DNA of 64,000 nt, taken from assembly GCA_963749085.1 (NCBI GenBank), contig CAVVLG010000002.1, positions 155,093-219,092 on the forward strand. The letters run 5' to 3'. Each line of letters opens with the position of its first letter. Within the stretch, counting starts at the first letter, position 1. The DNA comes from Candidatus Adlerbacteria bacterium. GTDB lineage: Bacteria; Patescibacteriota; Minisyncoccia; Phycocordibacterales; SBAW01. Of the stretch, positions 43,720 to 63,998 are shown piece after piece. The notes under the pieces were generated by a model that had not been told where the DNA came from, did no database searches, and saw only the letters and a program-made list of their open reading frames with translations. The position numbers and the translations under genes are program-made.

Positions 43720-44133
43720 TTGCTGCAAATGAGATAGCATCGTTCATGCATTCCATTCTCGTGCTCAAGGCGCAGATCACACCGGGCAGTGCCATCCGCA
43801 GAAAAGTCGTATCCCAGGTTCTCAACCGCTTTAATAGTGCCTCCGACGATTGGTATGGTACGGCCTCGCTTCGGTACTATCGGCTGGGCTCGTACGCCCG
43901 GACAGCACCTGCGTCGGCAACGATATTCTGTCATGAGTACCTCCTGAAAAGGACCTCTGCAGTACACTACCGCACGCTATAACAAGAAACAACCAGTCGC
44001 TGTGGTATTGCCAGACGTGTGCACCGCTCTCGTTTTTAAGCGCGTATATACTTCCAGAGGCTCCCTTAGAACCAATCTCAAAAATACCGTTGTAGACTAA
44101 AGGCACAGGGCGTTACCCGTAATTTGCCTGCCC

Positions 44134-44676
44134 ATGCCTCTCACCAACGAGCAGTGGAGCGTCATCGCTCCGTTTGTCACACCCCTCAAGCGTTTGGAAA
44201 CCCGCGGCCGTCCCCGGCAGGACGACCGCAAGATACTGGAAGGTATCCTCTGGGCACTGAAGACCGGCGCCCAGTGGAAGCACCTGCCGAAAGACTACCC
44301 GCCCTACCAGACCTGCCATCGCAGGTTCCAGCAGTGGGTGGAGAGCGGCGCCTTTGACCGCATCGTCGAAGCCCTGGCCATGGACATGGAATACCGGGGG
44401 CGCATCAAGCTCAGGAGCTGCTTTCTCGATGCCACCTTCGCGGGGGCAAAAAAGGGGGTCTTGGCGTGGGACCCACGAAGCGTGGGAAAGGCACCAAGAT
44501 CATGGCGATTGCGGACGAAGGCTCTCTTCCAGTCGCCGTCTATGTGGCCTCTGCTTCTCCGAGCGAAGTCCGGTTGGTTGAAGACACGCTTGCCCGGCGA
44601 TTTACCCGACAGAATCCGCTTCGCCTCACGGCTGACCGAGCATATGATTCCGATCCGCTGGATGGAACGCTCCTGA
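44134..44676 (+). CDS. IS5-family transposase OrfA (N-terminal DNA-binding part)
   Basis: LTNEQWSVIAPFV...GRPRQDDRKILEGILWALKTGAQWKHLPKDYPPYQTCHRRFQQW matches the DUF4096-type N-terminus of IS5/IS427 transposases. Confidence 0.8.
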   Translation: MPLTNEQWSVIAPFVTPLKRLETRGRPRQDDRKILEGILWALKTGAQWKHLPKDYPPYQTCHRRFQQWVESGAFDRIVEALAMDMEYRGRIKLRSCFLDATFAGAKKGVLAWDPRSVGKAPRSWRLRTKALFQSPSMWPLLLRAKSGWLKTRLPGDLPDRIRFASRLTEHMIPIRWMERS

Positions 44677-44906
44677 ACAAATACCGCATCAAACTCATTT
44701 CACCGCATCGCAGAGGCCGGGTGCGCAGAGCAACACAGGACGGCAGGGCGCTGCGCTCCTACAAGCGCCGGTGGAAGATTGAGCGGCTGTTCGCGTGGAT
44801 GCACAACTGGAGAAAGCTCGTGACTCGCTACGAATACAAACTGCAGAACTTTGCCGCCTTCGTGAAGCTCGCGTGCATCATGCTATTACTCAAACATTAT
44901 TTTTGA
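44452..44906 (+). CDS. IS5-family transposase OrfB (DDE domain), expressed as an OrfAB fusion by -1 frameshift
   Basis: The -1 frame from the A6G5 tract reads KKGGLGVGPTKRGKGTKIMAIADEGSLP...ADRAYDSD...YKRRWKIERLFAWMHNWRKLVTRYEYK, the DDE_Tnp_1 C-terminal signature. Confidence 0.8.
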
Positions 44907-44955
44907 GACTGGTTCTAGTGTTCGTTATTAATCCACATAATTAATTTAATTCAGT

Positions 44956-45714
44956 ATGAAAAGTAAACTGACACTTCTAGTTACCTCCTCGGCACTTCTC
45001 GGCTCCCTCCTCATAGTGGGAGTTGCCTCCGCGCAGACCACGACTCCCCCGCTCTCGGGTTCCCAAGGCGGCCACTGGGGTATGGGCACGGGTAGCCGTA
45101 TGCCTGGCGTCTTTGGCACCGTCTCAGCAATTAACGGCACGACGCTCACTGTCACGAGTAAGGGCTTCGGCCAAAACGCAACCGCGACGACCTATACGGT
45201 TGATGCTTCGAATGCGACCGTCTCGAAAGCCGGCGCAAGTTCATCGGTCTCCGCCATCGCAGTCGGCGACACGGTCATGGTACAGGGCACCGTCTCGGGC
45301 GACTCGGTTACGGCAACCTCTATTCGCGACGGCGCAATGCCGGGCGGCCCAGGCATGGGACAGAATATTATCCAGGGTAACGGCGAGCCCGTAGTCGGCG
45401 GAACGGTAACGGCTATAAGCGGCTCGACGGTAACTATCACCAACAAAAGCAATGTAACCTATACCATTGACGTCTCAAGCGCGACGGTTGAGAAGGATAA
45501 TGCAACCTCCTCAGTCCCCGCTATTGCGGTCGGTGACAATGTCGTCGTCCAGGGTACGGTCAATGGCACCTCGGTCACTGCTTCTTCGGTTATTGATAGT
45601 GGTGTCTCCACGGGAACTTCTTCCTCAGGCGGCATGTCAGACATCAGCCACCGGTTGAGCGGATTCATGGGGGCCATTGGGGGTTTCTTCCAGCATCTCT
45701 TCGGATTCTTCTAA
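44956..45714 (+). CDS. secreted tandem-repeat protein (DUF5666-like beta repeats) with C-terminal QHLFGFF
   Basis: Signal peptide. Two ~100-aa repeats (GTVSAINGTTLTVTSK...TYTVDASNATVSK...SAIAVGDTVMVQGTVSGDSVTATSI). C-terminus GGFFQHLFGFF. Confidence 0.5.
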   Translation: MKSKLTLLVTSSALLGSLLIVGVASAQTTTPPLSGSQGGHWGMGTGSRMPGVFGTVSAINGTTLTVTSKGFGQNATATTYTVDASNATVSKAGASSSVSAIAVGDTVMVQGTVSGDSVTATSIRDGAMPGGPGMGQNIIQGNGEPVVGGTVTAISGSTVTITNKSNVTYTIDVSSATVEKDNATSSVPAIAVGDNVVVQGTVNGTSVTASSVIDSGVSTGTSSSGGMSDISHRLSGFMGAIGGFFQHLFGFF

Positions 45715-45780
45715 AACACCAGTGGGTTGCATCAGCACAAGGCCGGCGCTGCCGGTCTTGTGTGTTAGAATGGAGCACCT

Positions 45781-46368
45781 ATGGATACACTGAAGATAAG
45801 GGTGATTATCGGCAGCACGCGACAAATGCGCTTCAGTGAGAAACCTGCGCAATGGATATTCGAGCTCCTGGCGAAAAAGGAAGGGGTTGGGGCGGAGCTT
45901 TTGGATTTGCGCGATTACTCCATGCCGTTTTTCGAGGAAGCAGCGACGCCGTCGTATAAAACCGCCCCGTACACCAACCCCGTCGTCGCAGAGTGGACGA
46001 AAAAAATTGCTGAAGCTGACGCCTTTATCATCGTGACTCCCGAATACAATCACGGCTATCCGGCGGTGCTGAAAAATGCGCTCGATTATGTCTATCAAGA
46101 ATGGAATAACAAGGCGGTGGGGTTCGTGGGCTATGGAAGCGTCAGTGGCGCGCGCTCAATTGAACAACTGAGGCAGGTAGTTGTGGAGCTTCAAATGGTG
46201 CCCATACGAAGCGCCATACACGTGCCTCCCGATATGTTTAGAGCCTACTGGACGGGAGACGGAGCAAAAAATCCCGACTTCTTTAAGCCTCTGGAACCCT
46301 TCGCTGAAACATTTCTGACGCAGCTTTTGTGGTGGGCGCGGATGCTCAAAGGGGCGCGAGGGAAATAA
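45781..46368 (+). CDS. NAD(P)H-dependent FMN reductase (flavodoxin-like fold)
   Basis: IIGSTRQMRFSEK and TPEYNHGYPAVLKNALDY motifs of the SsuE/ArsH-like FMN reductase family. Confidence 0.8.
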   Translation: MDTLKIRVIIGSTRQMRFSEKPAQWIFELLAKKEGVGAELLDLRDYSMPFFEEAATPSYKTAPYTNPVVAEWTKKIAEADAFIIVTPEYNHGYPAVLKNALDYVYQEWNNKAVGFVGYGSVSGARSIEQLRQVVVELQMVPIRSAIHVPPDMFRAYWTGDGAKNPDFFKPLEPFAETFLTQLLWWARMLKGARGK

Positions 46369-46448
46369 CACAAAAATGCATCTCTGTCTCCTGCACCCTC
46401 AAAAGGAGCTTTTTCGTATTTATTTTATTAACATGTTATTCATAATTC

Positions 46449-48233
46449 ATGAATGAAAAAACTGCGGGCCGTGTGGGCGTGTATGGGTTTTTGGCGTTTC
46501 TTTTGGTTTTGTTCATTCCTCTCTCCTTTGCCCTGGCACAAAGCGCTCCGTCGCTCTCCATTACCTCCCTCACGCCGGGAGGCACCGTCAACGCGGGAAC
46601 ACAGGTGTCCTTCGCAGTCGTGGCAACCGGATTCACGAACCCTACTTATTCCATAAGCGACTCCTACAGTGGCACCTCCGTCTCAAGCTCCGACCTTAAC
46701 TCCTCCGGGGTCTTCACCTGGACGCCCGCGCAAGGCGACATCGGCACGCACAACCTCACTATTACCGCCATTGATTCCTCGGGCGACAACGCGAGCATCA
46801 CTCAGCAAATCATCGTCAACAACACGCCGTCGCTGTCGGTCTCCAGTCTCTCTCCGGGCACCTCGGTGAGCGTGGGTCAGGATATTACGTTTGACGCCTC
46901 TGCTTCGTATTTCACCGGCACCCCCGCGTATTCCGTGAGCGATTCCTTCTCGGACTCCTCGATGACGACGGGCGCCATCAATTCCTCCTCCGGCACATTT
47001 TCCTGGACGCCTGAATCGCAGGATGTCGGTACGCACACGATAACGATTTCTGCGACCGATTCCAACGGGGACAGCGTCAACACGACCGAGACCATCACGG
47101 TCAACCAAAGCGCCTCGCTTTTCATCACCTCTCTGTCTCCCGGATCAAGCGTTGCCTATGGCAATCCGGTGGCGTTCACCGTGACGGCAACCGGATTCAA
47201 TAGTCCCACCTTTACTATTGGAGATTCGGACTCCGAGACGAGTGTCAATAACGGCGACATAAACTCCTCCGGGTATTTCAGCTGGACGCCTTCGAGCTCC
47301 GACGTCGGCACCCACACACTCAGCATCTTCGCGACCGACTCCTCAGGCCACAGCGCCAACGTTTCGCAGACGATAACGGTGACGAGCGCCGCTCTTACGA
47401 TTGAGTCCATCTCACCGGGCTACGTCGACACAGTCGGGGAACCTCTGACCTTCACGGTCTCGGCTCCCGGATTCTCAAGCTCCACCACCTACTCAGTGAG
47501 TGATTCCTTCGGGGGGTCGACACCCACACAAACCAGCATCACCAGTGCGGACATAAACGCTGCCGGATACTTTAGCTGGACGCCCCTTGCAACCGACGCG
47601 GGCGTGCACGACATCACGATAACCGGCGCGGACACCTCCGGGCACAGCGGAAACGCGAGCATCAATATCATTGTTGATCCCGCGACTACCACCACCTCGG
47701 TCACCCCGACAACCACAACCATCTCCGCTCTGACTACCACCACTTCAACCACCGAATTCACCGAATACCTCTCGCTGGGTTCGACCGGCTCGCAAGTCAC
47801 GGCGCTCCAGCAGATCCTCTATACCGACGGGTATCTCAGCGTTCAACCGACGGGATACTTCGGCACTCTCACCGCCGCGGCCATCAACGAGTTCCAGGCG
47901 GCACACGGGATTTCGCAAGTCGGCGTTGTGGGACCGCTTACACGGGCGGCGCTCAATGCGCTCGGTTCCTCCTCAACGTCGAGCGCCTCAAACACTTCAA
48001 CTACCACCACTTCAACCACCGAATTCACCGAATACCTCTCGCTGGGTTCGACCGGCTCGCAAGTCACGGCGCTCCAGCAGATCCTCTATACCGACGGGTA
48101 TCTCAGCGTTCAACCGACGGGATACTTCGGCACTCTCACCGCCGCGGCCATCAACGAGTTCCAGGCGGCACACGGGATTTCGCAAGTCGGCGTTGTGGGA
48201 CCGCTTACACGGGCGGCGCTCAATGCGCTATAA
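46449..48233 (+). CDS. secreted cell-wall-associated protein: 5 Ig-like (putative Ig / He_PIG-type) repeats + 2 peptidoglycan-binding domains
   Basis: Signal peptide. Five ~95-aa repeats (LSxTSLxPG...F(T/S)WTP...D(I/V)GTH(N/T)(L/I)TI(T/S)A(I/T)DS(S/N)G). Two identical PG_binding_1-like modules (LQQILYTDGYL...GYFGTLTAAAINEFQAAHGI). Confidence 0.6.
   Translation: MNEKTAGRVGVYGFLAFLLVLFIPLSFALAQSAPSLSITSLTPGGTVNAGTQVSFAVVATGFTNPTYSISDSYSGTSVSSSDLNSSGVFTWTPAQGDIGTHNLTITAIDSSGDNASITQQIIVNNTPSLSVSSLSPGTSVSVGQDITFDASASYFTGTPAYSVSDSFSDSSMTTGAINSSSGTFSWTPESQDVGTHTITISATDSNGDSVNTTETITVNQSASLFITSLSPGSSVAYGNPVAFTVTATGFNSPTFTIGDSDSETSVNNGDINSSGYFSWTPSSSDVGTHTLSIFATDSSGHSANVSQTITVTSAALTIESISPGYVDTVGEPLTFTVSAPGFSSSTTYSVSDSFGGSTPTQTSITSADINAAGYFSWTPLATDAGVHDITITGADTSGHSGNASINIIVDPATTTTSVTPTTTTISALTTTTSTTEFTEYLSLGSTGSQVTALQQILYTDGYLSVQPTGYFGTLTAAAINEFQAAHGISQVGVVGPLTRAALNALGSSSTSSASNTSTTTTSTTEFTEYLSLGSTGSQVTALQQILYTDGYLSVQPTGYFGTLTAAAINEFQAAHGISQVGVVGPLTRAALNAL
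47733..48229 (+). repeat. perfect 230-bp direct tandem duplication (period 267 bp) inside the 46449 gene
   Basis: 47733..47962 is nucleotide-identical to 48000..48229. Encodes the duplicated PG-binding module. Confidence 0.85.
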
Positions 48234-60586: not shown

Positions 60587-61834
60587 ATGACTCGTATACA
60601 ATTAGGCATAATGTCAGCAATCTTTCTTAGCGCGATCTTGTTGGGCGGCGGCGCTACTGCCTACGGCCAGGAAACGAATGTGCCGGGAGACGCCCAATTC
60701 CAGCAAAGGATTGCCGACAGGCTTGCCGAGCTTTCCCAGATACAAAATAAAGGGGCATGTGCCGAAGCCGCCAACGGGTATGCATCTTGTGGTGTACGGG
60801 TGGTTGTCGATTCAAGCGGCCGTGCAAGAGCGAATGTAGCGCCCAGCGGGTACGGTCCGAGTCAATTTCTCGGAGCCTACGACCTCACCGGACTTTCTTC
60901 TTCAAATACGATCGCCATTGTCGATGCATACGATGATCCTAATATCGCGAGCGACCTTAGCACGTACGACTCCTATTTTAAACTTCCCGTGTTTCCGGCC
61001 TGCAGCAGCACCATCACGACTAGTTGTTTTGAGAAGCTAAATGAGAACGGCAAGACCTCTCCCCTGCCGCAATCAAATTCGTCGTGGGATCTTGAAATTT
61101 CGTTGGATGTCGAGGTCGCTCACGCCACGTGCCAAAATTGCCGCATTTTCTTGGTTGAGGCCAATTCCAGCAGTTTTGCTGATCTGCTCAAGGCGGTCGA
61201 TACGGCGGCGAGCAATTCGAGCGTGGTATCGGGCTCCTGGGGCGCAAGCGAATTCTCCGGCGAGACAGCCTACGACAGTACCTTTGACAAGACGGGCGTC
61301 GCGTTCACCTTCAGCGCGGGGGACGGCGGCTATGGGACTTCCTATCCAGCAGCCTCGCCGTACGTGACCGCAGTCGGAGGAACAACGCTGCTGCTCAACG
61401 GCAATTCCTATCTCAGCGAGAGCGTCTGGAGCGGAACGGGCAGCGGCTGCAGTGTCTATGAAACTAAGCCTGCCTGGCAGAATAGCCCCTGCGCCAAGCG
61501 GACCATGAATGACGTTTCGGCAGATGCCAATCCGGCTACTGGTGCTGCTATCTATGATAGTGTCCCATACGATGGGGTTTCGGGATGGTTTGAAGTAGGC
61601 GGCACAAGTCTATCAGCGCCCCTCATCGCCGCAGTGTATGCCCTACAGGGAGTGCCGAGTGGCGTTAAAGCTAATGCATTGCCGTACAGCCAAGGCACTG
61701 CTTCTAATTTAAATAAGGTAACCACCGGGAGCAACGGGTCCTGCGGCACCTATTTGTGTAATGCTGCAGATGCGCTCTTAGGCTATAGCGGTCCCATTGG
61801 AGTAGGTACTCCGAGGGGTACCTCGGCATTCTAG
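60587..61834 (+). CDS. secreted serine peptidase, S8/S53 (sedolisin-like) fold
   Basis: Signal peptide, TIAIVDAYDD (Asp), SAGDGGYG (sedolisin SGDxG-like oxyanion Asp) and GGTSLSAPLIAA (catalytic Ser). Confidence 0.6.
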   Translation: MTRIQLGIMSAIFLSAILLGGGATAYGQETNVPGDAQFQQRIADRLAELSQIQNKGACAEAANGYASCGVRVVVDSSGRARANVAPSGYGPSQFLGAYDLTGLSSSNTIAIVDAYDDPNIASDLSTYDSYFKLPVFPACSSTITTSCFEKLNENGKTSPLPQSNSSWDLEISLDVEVAHATCQNCRIFLVEANSSSFADLLKAVDTAASNSSVVSGSWGASEFSGETAYDSTFDKTGVAFTFSAGDGGYGTSYPAASPYVTAVGGTTLLLNGNSYLSESVWSGTGSGCSVYETKPAWQNSPCAKRTMNDVSADANPATGAAIYDSVPYDGVSGWFEVGGTSLSAPLIAAVYALQGVPSGVKANALPYSQGTASNLNKVTTGSNGSCGTYLCNAADALLGYSGPIGVGTPRGTSAF

Positions 61835-62148
61835 AGCGGTACGGCTTGATTTTGTGCCACGCACACTCTCCGGGGCACCTGGCCTACCACTATAGGACCT
61901 TCCGCCAGGCAGGAGTACCCGGCGGGGCAATCGCTCGTGCTTGTGCAAGTAAGCGTGCCGTGATGTGAGGTCGGCACACTCGGGTTTGACGTTGGGATGC
62001 TGGGGACGGTTTGTATAGGTGCTGCGTAATACTCCTGCGTTTGTTGATATAGCGCACCGGTTTTAAATCCGATGAAGAAGGTCGCTATGAACACCAGCAC
62101 GGCGAGCGCTTTGGAATACCAGGTTACCGTGTTCCATTCAATAGCCAT
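61831..62148 (-). CDS. hypothetical small membrane-anchored protein (105 aa)
   Basis: One TM helix. Cys-rich C-terminus. Confidence 0.35.
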   Translation of the reverse strand: MAIEWNTVTWYSKALAVLVFIATFFIGFKTGALYQQTQEYYAAPIQTVPSIPTSNPSVPTSHHGTLTCTSTSDCPAGYSCLAEGPIVVGQVPRRVCVAQNQAVPL

Positions 62149-62214: not shown

Positions 62215-62565
62215 TTACCATTTGAAAAATCCAAACACATGCTGCAGGAGCGCGGAGATATGTCCGAAGAGTCGCGCGGTGAACGCAGGCGCTATGGGAG
62301 GGGTGGACGTCGCAGAAGAAGCGGCAACATAGATATGGATAGTCTGATGACCTCGTGGAGATGAGGTCGTGGTCGCATATTGATAGTGTGTACCATCAAC
62401 GTCGGTAGTGATAGAGATGCTCGAAGTCCCGCCCCCGCTCATCTGCGTGTCTATATCAGCCGAGGCACTTGAGGAGCCGCTTGCGCTCGCCTCAGTGTAG
62501 TCATAGGTGTAGTTGTACACCTGGGGCATGGGAGGTAGTGGTGGGATAAGCATACGTAGCGTCAA
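62215..62565 (-). CDS. hypothetical Ser/Thr-rich protein ending in QHVFGFF
   Basis: Start overlaps the upstream stop (ATGA). C-terminus LFGHISALLQHVFGFFKW parallels the C-terminus of the 44956 protein. Confidence 0.35.
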   Translation of the reverse strand: MTLRMLIPPLPPMPQVYNYTYDYTEASASGSSSASADIDTQMSGGGTSSISITTDVDGTHYQYATTTSSPRGHQTIHIYVAASSATSTPPIAPAFTARLFGHISALLQHVFGFFKW

Positions 62566-63998
62566 AAAGAAAAGACGGATTTCAGCCAGCTACTCAACGT
62601 TGGGGGGGTACTGTGAGTGCTTGCGGGCGTTTTCTTTTTGGGAGTGGCCGGTTTTAGTTTCGCCGGTTGAACAGATGCCTGCGGGACAGATACTTGCGAG
62701 GAGGTGGAAGAGGGAGTGACAGGGGCGGATGCCTGCGTACCGCAGGAGAGCTGGTTAATTCTAGTTTTGGTAAGCGTGTAGACATTCCCGGTCGCGGGTA
62801 TGCCGTTTGCTGCCTGAAATTTCTTCACTGCTGCTTCAGTGAGGTTACCGTAGTAGCCCGTTGGCTCAACCGAGAGATACCCCTCCTGATTGAGGATAGT
62901 CTGCAGCACAGTCACATCGGCGCTGCTATTATTTTTTGACCCGGGGAACAGATAACCGGCAAGCGGGGGCGTGCACGAGGTGGTTTCATTCGACGTGTTC
63001 TTGTTGATCGATACGTTCGCGAGATCCACGGTCGATGTCCCCAGTACTTCCCCTCCCCCCGAAAAACCGCTCGTTGAAGTGGCGATCATGCTTCCGTTGG
63101 GGAAATACTCCACATCACCCTCTCCATCAACAGGGGTTATAAAGTTGGTGTCGAAGTCCTGTCCGGTCACTTCAGCAACGTTATGGTAGATACCCGGCGT
63201 GGTGCTGGCCGTAAATTGCGCCGCGTACGTAAGGGTGACTTGATCTCCCGGCTCAAGAACATCCAGATTCCACGAGCGGGTATACACGATCCCTCCTGAG
63301 GGGTTATAGAGCGTGTCAGTCAGCGTTGAATTGTAGAGGGGTCCGGCATTTGGATCGTCGGTGACCACGACTTGATAGTTTACCGAGGCAGGCGTGGTGT
63401 CGGCTACCGTGAAGGTTTTCACCACGGTTATCTCTGCGGAAGACAAAATATTTGATCCGGAGCTGCCTCCTCCACCTCCGCTGCCGCCTCCCCCTGCGCC
63501 TCCTCCTCCTGCGCTCGAGGACGTAGTACTCGAAGGACTACCCGTAGTGCCACTGGAGGCGCCGCTGCTTGCGCCCCCACCGCCGCCTCCACCTCCGCTT
63601 GAGGTAGAGCTGCCTCCGGTTGTACTGCCGGTGGTAGGTGGAGCGCTACCACCCCCGCTTCCTGAGCTTGCGCTGCCTCCGGTAGGTGGATCGCCGCCGC
63701 CGCTTCCTGAGCTTCCGCTGCTGGGGTCAGTGCCTGAGGCCGAAGAAATGACGATCGAGACGGTTTGGGTATTATCGGTGTCGTTCTGGTTGTGCTCGTC
63801 TGAGGTGGCGGTTGCGGTCAATGGCACGGCCACCGAATCCCCGGTCGGCAATCCGGGCGCTTCCACGCGCATGATGGCGTCTATCTCAACCGAAGCACCC
63901 GGGGCGATGCTGCCGAGCGTCCACTGCGTGCCTCCTGAGATGCTGGAACTCGTGCCACCGTCGCTTCGCTCCAGAAAGAGCAGGTTCTGATTGTACAC
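62562..63998 (-). CDS. cell-surface protein with Gly/Ser-rich linker and C-terminal peptidoglycan-binding domain (N-terminus outside window)
   Basis: ORF open to the window edge. PG_binding_1-like VLQTILNQEGYL...GYYGNLTEAAVKKFQAANGI. Long G/S/T low-complexity tract. Confidence 0.5.
   Translation of the reverse strand: MYNQNLLFLERSDGGTSSSISGGTQWTLGSIAPGASVEIDAIMRVEAPGLPTGDSVAVPLTATATSDEHNQNDTDNTQTVSIVISSASGTDPSSGSSGSGGGDPPTGGSASSGSGGGSAPPTTGSTTGGSSTSSGGGGGGGGASSGASSGTTGSPSSTTSSSAGGGGAGGGGSGGGGGSSGSNILSSAEITVVKTFTVADTTPASVNYQVVVTDDPNAGPLYNSTLTDTLYNPSGGIVYTRSWNLDVLEPGDQVTLTYAAQFTASTTPGIYHNVAEVTGQDFDTNFITPVDGEGDVEYFPNGSMIATSTSGFSGGGEVLGTSTVDLANVSINKNTSNETTSCTPPLAGYLFPGSKNNSSADVTVLQTILNQEGYLSVEPTGYYGNLTEAAVKKFQAANGIPATGNVYTLTKTRINQLSCGTQASAPVTPSSTSSQVSVPQASVQPAKLKPATPKKKTPASTHSTPPTLSSWLKSVFSF

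Follow-up and report, generated by a model that had tools for sequence, protein, structure and literature searches.

Two open reading frames (ORFs) in a stretch of 64,000 nucleotides from a Candidatus Adlerbacteria bacterium (contig CAVVLG010000002.1; the whole 64-kb stretch is called the window below) encode proteins with nearly the same ending, QH(L/V)FGFF, and the question raised by this locus is what such a shared C-terminus means. One ORF, at 44956–45714 on the forward strand, encodes an exported protein of the DUF5666 family; the other, at 62215–62565 on the reverse strand, is an orphan. A preliminary description of the sequence had taken the common ending for a candidate sorting or processing signal on unrelated secreted proteins. 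The endings are present as it described, with a likeness that extends over about 18 residues, and a role of this tail in localisation is likely, whereas a tag that is cleaved or transpeptidated and borne by cargo in general is unlikely.

The tail of the DUF5666 family

The 252-residue product of ORF 44956–45714 matches PF18914 with E = 1.6e-11 (44.8 bits against a gathering cut-off of 27) and is laid out as a signal peptide, two beta-barrel domains, a Ser/Thr/Gly linker and a C-terminal tail; its C-terminal end is ...GFMGAIGGFFQHLFGFF, and the chain terminates ...SHRLSGFMGAIGGFFQHLFGFF*. In the full-length AlphaFold2 (AF2) prediction the two barrels have predicted local distance difference test (pLDDT) values above 90 and have after them a disordered linker and then a tail of low confidence, and a Foldseek search likened the barrels to OB folds of the S1/cold-shock type. 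A homology search with this protein returned 1,855 matches, the named ones belonging to Paceibacterota/Parcubacteria and related groups of the candidate phyla radiation (CPR). A genome scan returned 80 loci, and those of its records that bear a taxon name are nearly all metagenome-assembled genomes of CPR/Patescibacteria, with names that include Kaiser-, Adler-, Nomura-, Yanofsky- and Staskawiczbacteria.

An alignment of 46 members gives the family architecture as a signal peptide, two to three DUF5666 domains, a Ser/Thr/Asn-rich linker and the tail, which is also the architecture of the window's protein, and a low-complexity linker always precedes the tail. The signal peptide follows the consensus M..K...hydrophobic...AFAQT, in which Ala26 is invariant. 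When the endings of the 120 best of the 1,855 matches were inspected, about 115 were found to close with the same tail, and 105 of the 120 passed a signal-peptide heuristic based on the best 12-residue hydropathy (cut-off 1.6). The preliminary description had made its proposal depend on further proteins with this ending and on their carrying signal peptides; both exist in large numbers, and the tail is therefore an element that has been selected at the C-terminus of exported proteins.

The conservation of the tail was quantified in 185 members anchored on the final [LIM]-F-G-F, and the consensus, of about 18 residues, is G-phi-phi-G-x-I-G-x-F-F-x-H-L-F-G-F(F). Read from its N-terminal side, it has Gly at position -16 (frequency 0.81), F/I/V/M/L at -15 and -14, Gly at -13 (0.79), Ile at -11 (0.89), Gly at -10 (0.90), Phe at -8 (0.95) and -7 (0.96), H/K/Q/S at -6, His at -5 (0.60), Leu at -4 (0.80), Phe at -3 (1.00), Gly at -2 (0.98) and Phe at -1 (0.99), with an extra final Phe in 43% of members. 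A His lies within the three residues preceding the [LIM]-F-G-F core in 84% of members, and a second His, 16–28 residues from the end, is found in 63%. Phe makes up 31% of the tail, Gly 28% and acidic residues less than 1%; in the last four positions acidic and basic residues are essentially absent (Lys/Arg about 0–1%). The hydrophobic stretch has about 16 residues, six or seven of which are Gly or other small residues, and a few members carry two extra C-terminal residues (GK or SK), the orphan carrying KW. Mean column identity is 61% in the tail compared with 49% in the whole protein, and upstream of position -20 the 185 tails have no conserved column, none exceeding about 25% except in a Gly-rich patch.

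No model in Pfam or NCBIfam covers the tail. PF23284 and PF21159 were considered as models of it and rejected, their matches on some homologues mapping to the beta-barrel domains instead. The tail profile found no match among PDB sequences at E up to 10, and a padded tail alignment run against 5.8 billion proteins gave 624 candidates with none at E <= 10, a search that is uninformative. The titles and abstracts listed by a literature search on DUF5666 hold nothing that bears on the tail.

The tail has a clear helical periodicity. For ORF 44956–45714 the hydrophobic moment at 100 degrees is 0.32, while shuffled sequences average 0.13 (p = 0.001), and for the orphan ORF it is 0.39–0.49 at the same angle. 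The family mean over the last 18 residues has a sharp peak of 0.36 at 100 degrees and is flat, at 0.08, at 160 degrees; compared with shuffles the mean z is 2.6, and z exceeds 1.64 in 90% of tails. On a helical wheel, Phe, Ile and Leu form one face of about 160 degrees and Gly, His, Lys, Asn and Ser the opposite one; every variable position (-12, -9, -6 and -5) falls on the polar side, and the bulky residues that are conserved point to the hydrophobic one. The Wimley-White interfacial energy is about -6 kcal/mol, compared with -5.0 for the C-terminus of penicillin-binding protein 5 (PBP5).

Distribution beyond the family

Carriers of the tail were sought in three independent samples, the source genome itself being represented by the 64-kb window. 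The first sample consisted of the window and 80 Paceibacterota loci (1.28 Mb), in which the ends of 9,548 ORFs were scored with the tail profile; the matches were DUF5666 genes, the orphan ORF and one weak match (E = 1.7), L054:4638-6017, a 459-aa exported protein of Ig-like repeats with the end SIGGFILSSVINFFGSIFKLF. In the second, a profile built from the tail alone gave 31 matches at E <= 1e-3 among 1.84 billion representative proteins. Two of these, P0123 and P0136, are very long eukaryote-type repeat proteins, presumably with repeats of the insect-allergen type, that match internally at each repeat end (...DFFKSLFGW, ...DFFRKIFGW), and their likeness to the tail is taken as chance or convergent; the others are DUF5666 proteins, fragments and apparently frameshifted or chimeric derivatives. 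The third search was blind to the family and looked in metagenome contigs for DNA that encodes F-F-x-H-[LF]-F-G-F-F directly before a stop codon; among the 80 loci that it returned all 18 real carriers (18/18) are DUF5666, and in the remaining loci the pattern falls in short random ORFs of T-rich sequence.

The canonical tail is essentially confined to the DUF5666 family, and the conservation across unrelated cargo on which the idea of a sorting system had rested did not hold up in these samples. The orphan ORF is a rare exception, the one significant carrier outside DUF5666 in the samples examined. Within the family, the DUF5666 protein P0134 has an internal tail-like segment, PGFFGKVGHFFSNLFGGG, before its domain in addition to the terminal one, PGFFKKIGNFFSNIF, so that a location other than the C-terminus is possible for the motif.

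Less strict aromatic amphipathic endings, again preceded by a low-complexity linker, are found on a PG_binding protein of L031 (IFTRFWNFLKSLF), an Ig-like protein of L005 (GFLSQFWSWLSGLFH) and the large surface protein of the window (SSWLKSVFSF). They do not amount to an established wider class on Paceibacterota surface proteins, a generic criterion giving 3 cases in 905 ORFs of at least 200 aa against 0.12% of internal windows (p = 0.10). Another recurrent ending, Gly-rich and closing with Ser-Trp, is shared by L022:5189-6082 (...GGGGFAGGGFGGGGGGSW) and L061:2-622 (...GGGGFSGGGFGGGGGGSW), the proteins being unrelated to DUF5666.

A proposed membrane anchor and its alternatives

We consider it somewhat probable, and hold with moderate confidence, that the tail is an uncleaved amphipathic membrane anchor and a family signature of Paceibacterota DUF5666 proteins; what the analysis shows is the conservation across the family, the signal peptides, the helical periodicity, the missing features of processed sorting signals and the restriction to one family, and from there we infer membrane binding, the orientation of the helix and the lack of cleavage. 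The DUF5666 protein would be exported and its signal peptide removed, after which the tail, disordered in water, would fold on the membrane into an amphipathic alpha-helix, Phe, Ile and Leu lining one face and Gly, His and Lys the other. This helix would be embedded, flat or at a slant, in the outer leaflet of the cytoplasmic membrane, and as the tail would remain uncleaved, the OB folds would be held at the cell surface via the flexible Ser/Thr/Asn-rich linker, in a PBP5-like manner. Some support may be drawn from L054:4638-6017, which has He_PIG/Big repeats and an architecture like that of the protein encoded at 46449–48233 of the window, with a Pro/Thr linker and a divergent aromatic tail replacing PG_binding_1. 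To judge from the sequences, the pair looks like a swap of envelope-anchoring modules in which the tail occupies the position of the PG_binding_1 module.

The comparison with PBP5 is instructive in both its likenesses and its differences. The last 18 residues of PBP5 form an amphipathic helix that tethers this periplasmic protein to the outer face of the inner membrane, and the helix also binds the membrane when PBP5 stays cytoplasmic (PMC2909392). The C-terminus compared here is that of the Escherichia coli K-12 dacA product, the sequence of which was verified. Like the DUF5666 family, PBP5 is exported with a cleavable signal peptide; its ending, G-N-F-F-G...F-H-H-W-F-G, bears a striking likeness to G-G-F-F-G...F-x-H-L-F-G-F in the tail, and its helical periodicity, moment and interfacial energy are close to those of the tail. 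However, the cargo of PBP5 is a DD-carboxypeptidase whereas that of the tail is unrelated and made of OB folds, no homology to the low-molecular-weight penicillin-binding proteins is detectable, and the tail is far richer in Gly and Phe, is almost uncharged, stands on a long low-complexity linker and is much more strictly conserved. A C-terminal amphipathic anchor is also carried by PBP6. By analogy, the tail would be a lineage-specific, unusually conserved element that works like a PBP5-type anchor outside that protein family.

Other membrane-active peptides resemble the tail in part. MinD and FtsA bind membranes reversibly through a short terminal amphipathic helix, an analogy that is relevant to the orphan ORF with its missing signal peptide; however, their site of action is intracellular, unlike that of the exported DUF5666 family, and their helices are cationic and weakly hydrophobic, with a mean hydrophobicity of about 0 or below in the sequences used for comparison, compared with 0.59 for the tail. 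Melittin, magainin and bombinin are Gly-rich peptides of the GIG... type, and magainin 2 (GIGKFLHS...), with Gly and other small residues on one face, recalls the tail core G-I-G-x-F-F-x-H. These peptides are free, cationic and lytic, whereas the tail is uncharged and covalently part of a folded protein, and the likeness serves as a lead only.

Several points weigh against a simple membrane anchor. The conservation is residue-specific (Phe is invariant, and Gly is kept at -16, -13, -10 and -2, Ile at -11 and His at -5/-6) and is thus stricter than a generic lipid anchor needs, which hints at a specific partner or at helix–helix packing. The profile search of the PDB found no sequence homology of the tail to the PBP5 anchor. 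In the full-length AF2 model the tail reaches a pLDDT of only 45–55 and has a helix of four residues, a result that is uninformative on the helix, and the single helix predicted over residues 5–28 (pLDDT 86–90) when the isolated 30-residue tail was modelled with 102 aligned tails is weak support because AF2 favours helices for short peptides. The mean hydrophobicity of 0.59, together with the moment of 0.36, places the tail near the Eisenberg boundary between surface and transmembrane segments, so that the helix may lie in the plane of the membrane or cross it.

The strictness of the conservation would be accounted for if the tail were a family-specific interaction or oligomerisation motif, in which the Gly face (GxxGxxG, glycine-zipper-like), the Phe residues and the His packed on a partner and lipid binding were secondary; candidates for this partner are a second copy of the tail and membrane proteins such as a neighbouring DedA/VTT protein or a MacB-type ABC transporter. 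We regard this as rather unlikely, although it has more in its favour than the restriction of the canonical tail to one family: the tail is as strongly conserved as the folded domains, and the neighbours within 10 kb on either side of the DUF5666 gene at 80 loci recur, with PG_binding surface proteins at 18 of the loci, DedA/VTT at 16, HlyD-type proteins at 11 and MacB/FtsX at 9. These recurrent genes suggest a loosely conserved cell-envelope neighbourhood, but each neighbour is limited to about a quarter of the loci or fewer, and a helix turned towards lipid would be expected to separate variable positions (polar side) from conserved bulky residues (hydrophobic side) in just this way. That the tail serves for sorting or processing, and is removed by a dedicated protease or transpeptidase that attaches or releases the cargo, by analogy with the systems named next or with the C-terminal domain of the T9SS, is improbable. 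As in the LPXTG/sortase, PEP-CTERM/exosortase, GlyGly-CTERM/rhombosortase and PGF-CTERM/archaeosortase systems, a strongly conserved element stands at the extreme C-terminus of exported proteins after a linker, and divergent aromatic tails are found on a few other exported surface proteins (those of L054, L031 and L005 and the large protein of the window). Unlike these tripartite signals, however, the tail has no signature cleavage motif N-terminal to the hydrophobic stretch, no full-length transmembrane helix and no terminal Arg/Lys cluster, nor is it found across many families of cargo. As to the co-distributed protease or transpeptidase that the preliminary description suggested looking for, no sortase, rhomboid/rhombosortase, exosortase-type or other recurrent processing gene lies within 10 kb on either side at the 80 loci, although such enzymes need not be linked. 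Tolerance of the C-terminal extensions GK, SK and KW and of an internal copy, the lack of enrichment of the generic aromatic amphipathic class and the existence of an orphan carrier with no signal peptide speak against such a signal as well.

The aromatic C-terminal residue and the Phe at both -1 and -3 also recall the BamA-type beta-signal for insertion of outer-membrane beta-barrels. This possibility is hardly credible and is excluded by the helical periodicity, the moment showing no beta periodicity, and by the cargo, since soluble OB folds and a disordered linker, not a membrane barrel, precede the tail; CPR/Paceibacterota are moreover regarded as having no outer membrane. A more speculative idea, to which we give little credence, is that the tail, rather than a passive anchor, is a Paceibacterota-specific recognition or insertion element, for instance a tag for a putative CPR envelope-attachment or secretion pathway or a membrane-active helix that inserts the tethered OB-fold protein into the membrane of the host cell to which these episymbionts are attached. 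If that were true, the near-invariant Phe, Gly and His would be receptor contacts or oligomer interfaces, and the divergent tails on the few surface proteins would mark further clients.

The second copy and the surrounding genes

The features of the window that bear on the two tails are collected in Table 1.

Table 1. Positions of the tail-bearing genes and of related features in the window.
Feature	Position	Strand	Details and basis
DUF5666 exported tandem OB-fold gene	44956..45714	+	252 aa; Pfam PF18914
Signal peptide, aa 1-26, MKSKLTLLVTSSALLGSLLIVGVASA, then Q	44956..45033	+	Read directly in the sequence; family consensus
C-terminal tail (aa 235-252), SGFMGAIGGFFQHLFGFF; putative membrane anchor, predicted to be an amphipathic helix	45658..45711	+	Family profile, hydrophobic moment, AF2
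Exported Ig-like (He_PIG) repeat protein with two terminal PG_binding_1 modules	46449..48233	+	Pfam
Orphan ORF; 116 aa if started at TTG, 104 aa as publicly annotated	62215..62565	-	Second tail copy
Tail of the orphan ORF, ARLFGHISALLQHVFGFFKW	62218..62277	-	25.3 bits, E = 6e-6 against the tail profile
Large surface-protein gene, 3' part	62562..63998	-	HYR, DUF11/CARDB and PG_binding_1 domains (Pfam)

The orphan product ends ...LFGHISALLQHVFGFFKW, and its tail, scored among the 9,548 ORF ends, aligns with that of the DUF5666 protein over about 18 residues (xxLFGxIxxLLQHVFGFF compared with GGFFGAIGGFFQHLFGFF); the likeness of the two is far beyond chance. Translated in all six frames, the window contains FGFF three times, twice at the ends of these two ORFs and once in an intergenic stretch, 15 codons past a stop. 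The DNA encoding the two tails is only moderately similar and differs at many synonymous sites, which rules out a recent duplication between the two loci. Proteins of both genes had been described as secreted, but only the DUF5666 protein has a signal peptide: the best 12-residue hydropathy in the orphan is 0.72, below the cut-off of 1.6. Lacking such a peptide, the orphan product would be limited at best to binding the membrane from the inside, if it is functional at all.

That the orphan ORF is non-functional, or a young or decaying gene whose tail is a leftover or a chance gain, so that the sharing carries no functional message, is a real possibility, if one that falls short of probable. 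It has no homologue among 5.8 billion proteins, its sole match being itself, no Pfam or NCBIfam match and, tail aside, no relatives in 80 related loci; the other non-DUF5666 matches of the tail profile (P0129, P0132, P0135) look like frameshifted or chimeric DUF5666 derivatives. Codon usage points both ways: the score of 0.007 per codon falls below the 5th percentile of real genes, yet it is the best of the six frames, the others scoring -0.36 or lower. In favour of a genuine gene, the tail is matched significantly over its full 18 residues, and the peptide has been kept although the DNA differs at synonymous sites. A frameshifted DUF5666 pseudogene was also considered and ruled out, as only the tail matches around the ORF in any frame and no DUF5666 remnant is found in the neighbouring frames.

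At a run of five T (window 62560–62570), the stop codon TGA of the upstream gene shares bases with the TTG at which the orphan begins (TTGA). The translational coupling proposed for the pair depends on this start; the public gene call begins 12 codons later. One extra T would fuse the two, and the orphan was considered as an in-frame extension of the large upstream protein; this was judged less likely, and the stop of the large gene is probably real, because the upstream ORF has its own short tail, of a type also present on L031. The large surface protein has at least 1,162 aa, L001 carrying the gene beyond the window edge, and it closes with a Pro/Thr/Lys linker and a short weak tail, LSSWLKSVFSF. 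The aromatic ending SSWLKSVFSF had been pointed out before and is indeed there; however, it passes a relaxed regular expression only, as do three evidently spurious ORFs. Adjoining the orphan are a gene at 60587–61834 for an exported protein of 415 aa, in which a GTSxSAP motif resembles that of subtilisins/sedolisins and which has no Pfam match and only a weak NCBIfam mycosin match, and one at 61831–62148 for a 105-aa N-terminally anchored Cys-rich protein.

Upstream of the DUF5666 gene, 39 bp from its start codon, lies an IS5-family insertion sequence (window 44067–44917) with two overlapping ORFs (DUF4096 and DDE_Tnp_1), presumably joined via frameshifting, and 25-nt inverted repeats at its ends (44067–44091 and 44893–44917; 88% complementary); the element may influence expression of the DUF5666 gene. 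In the neighbour survey, ABC transporter proteins were found at 26 of the 80 loci and an ECF (extracytoplasmic function) sigma factor at 9. The loci with a PG_binding_1 neighbour include L007, L008, L013, L026, L029, L041, L042, L048, L050 and L061, as well as the window (44956–48233). At the 3' end of the Ig-like surface-protein gene at 46449–48233, a perfect (100%) tandem duplication of 267 bp in 1.9 copies (47733–48229) yields two identical PG_binding_1 modules and is either a very recent event or an assembly artefact.

In conclusion, this analysis describes a C-terminal tail that characterizes a family of exported OB-fold proteins in CPR/Paceibacterota, a large part of bacterial diversity that is almost entirely uncultured and whose cell-surface organisation is poorly known. 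A C-terminal motif common to proteins within one window need not mean a sorting system. As the strictly conserved ending of a family with more than 1,800 relatives, of which nearly all those inspected carry it, the tail offers a handle on how proteins may be retained at the membrane without lipoprotein or sortase signals, and as an annotation rule it would mark surface-tethered proteins. If its strict conservation reflects a specific partner, the tail would indicate a lineage-specific envelope system.

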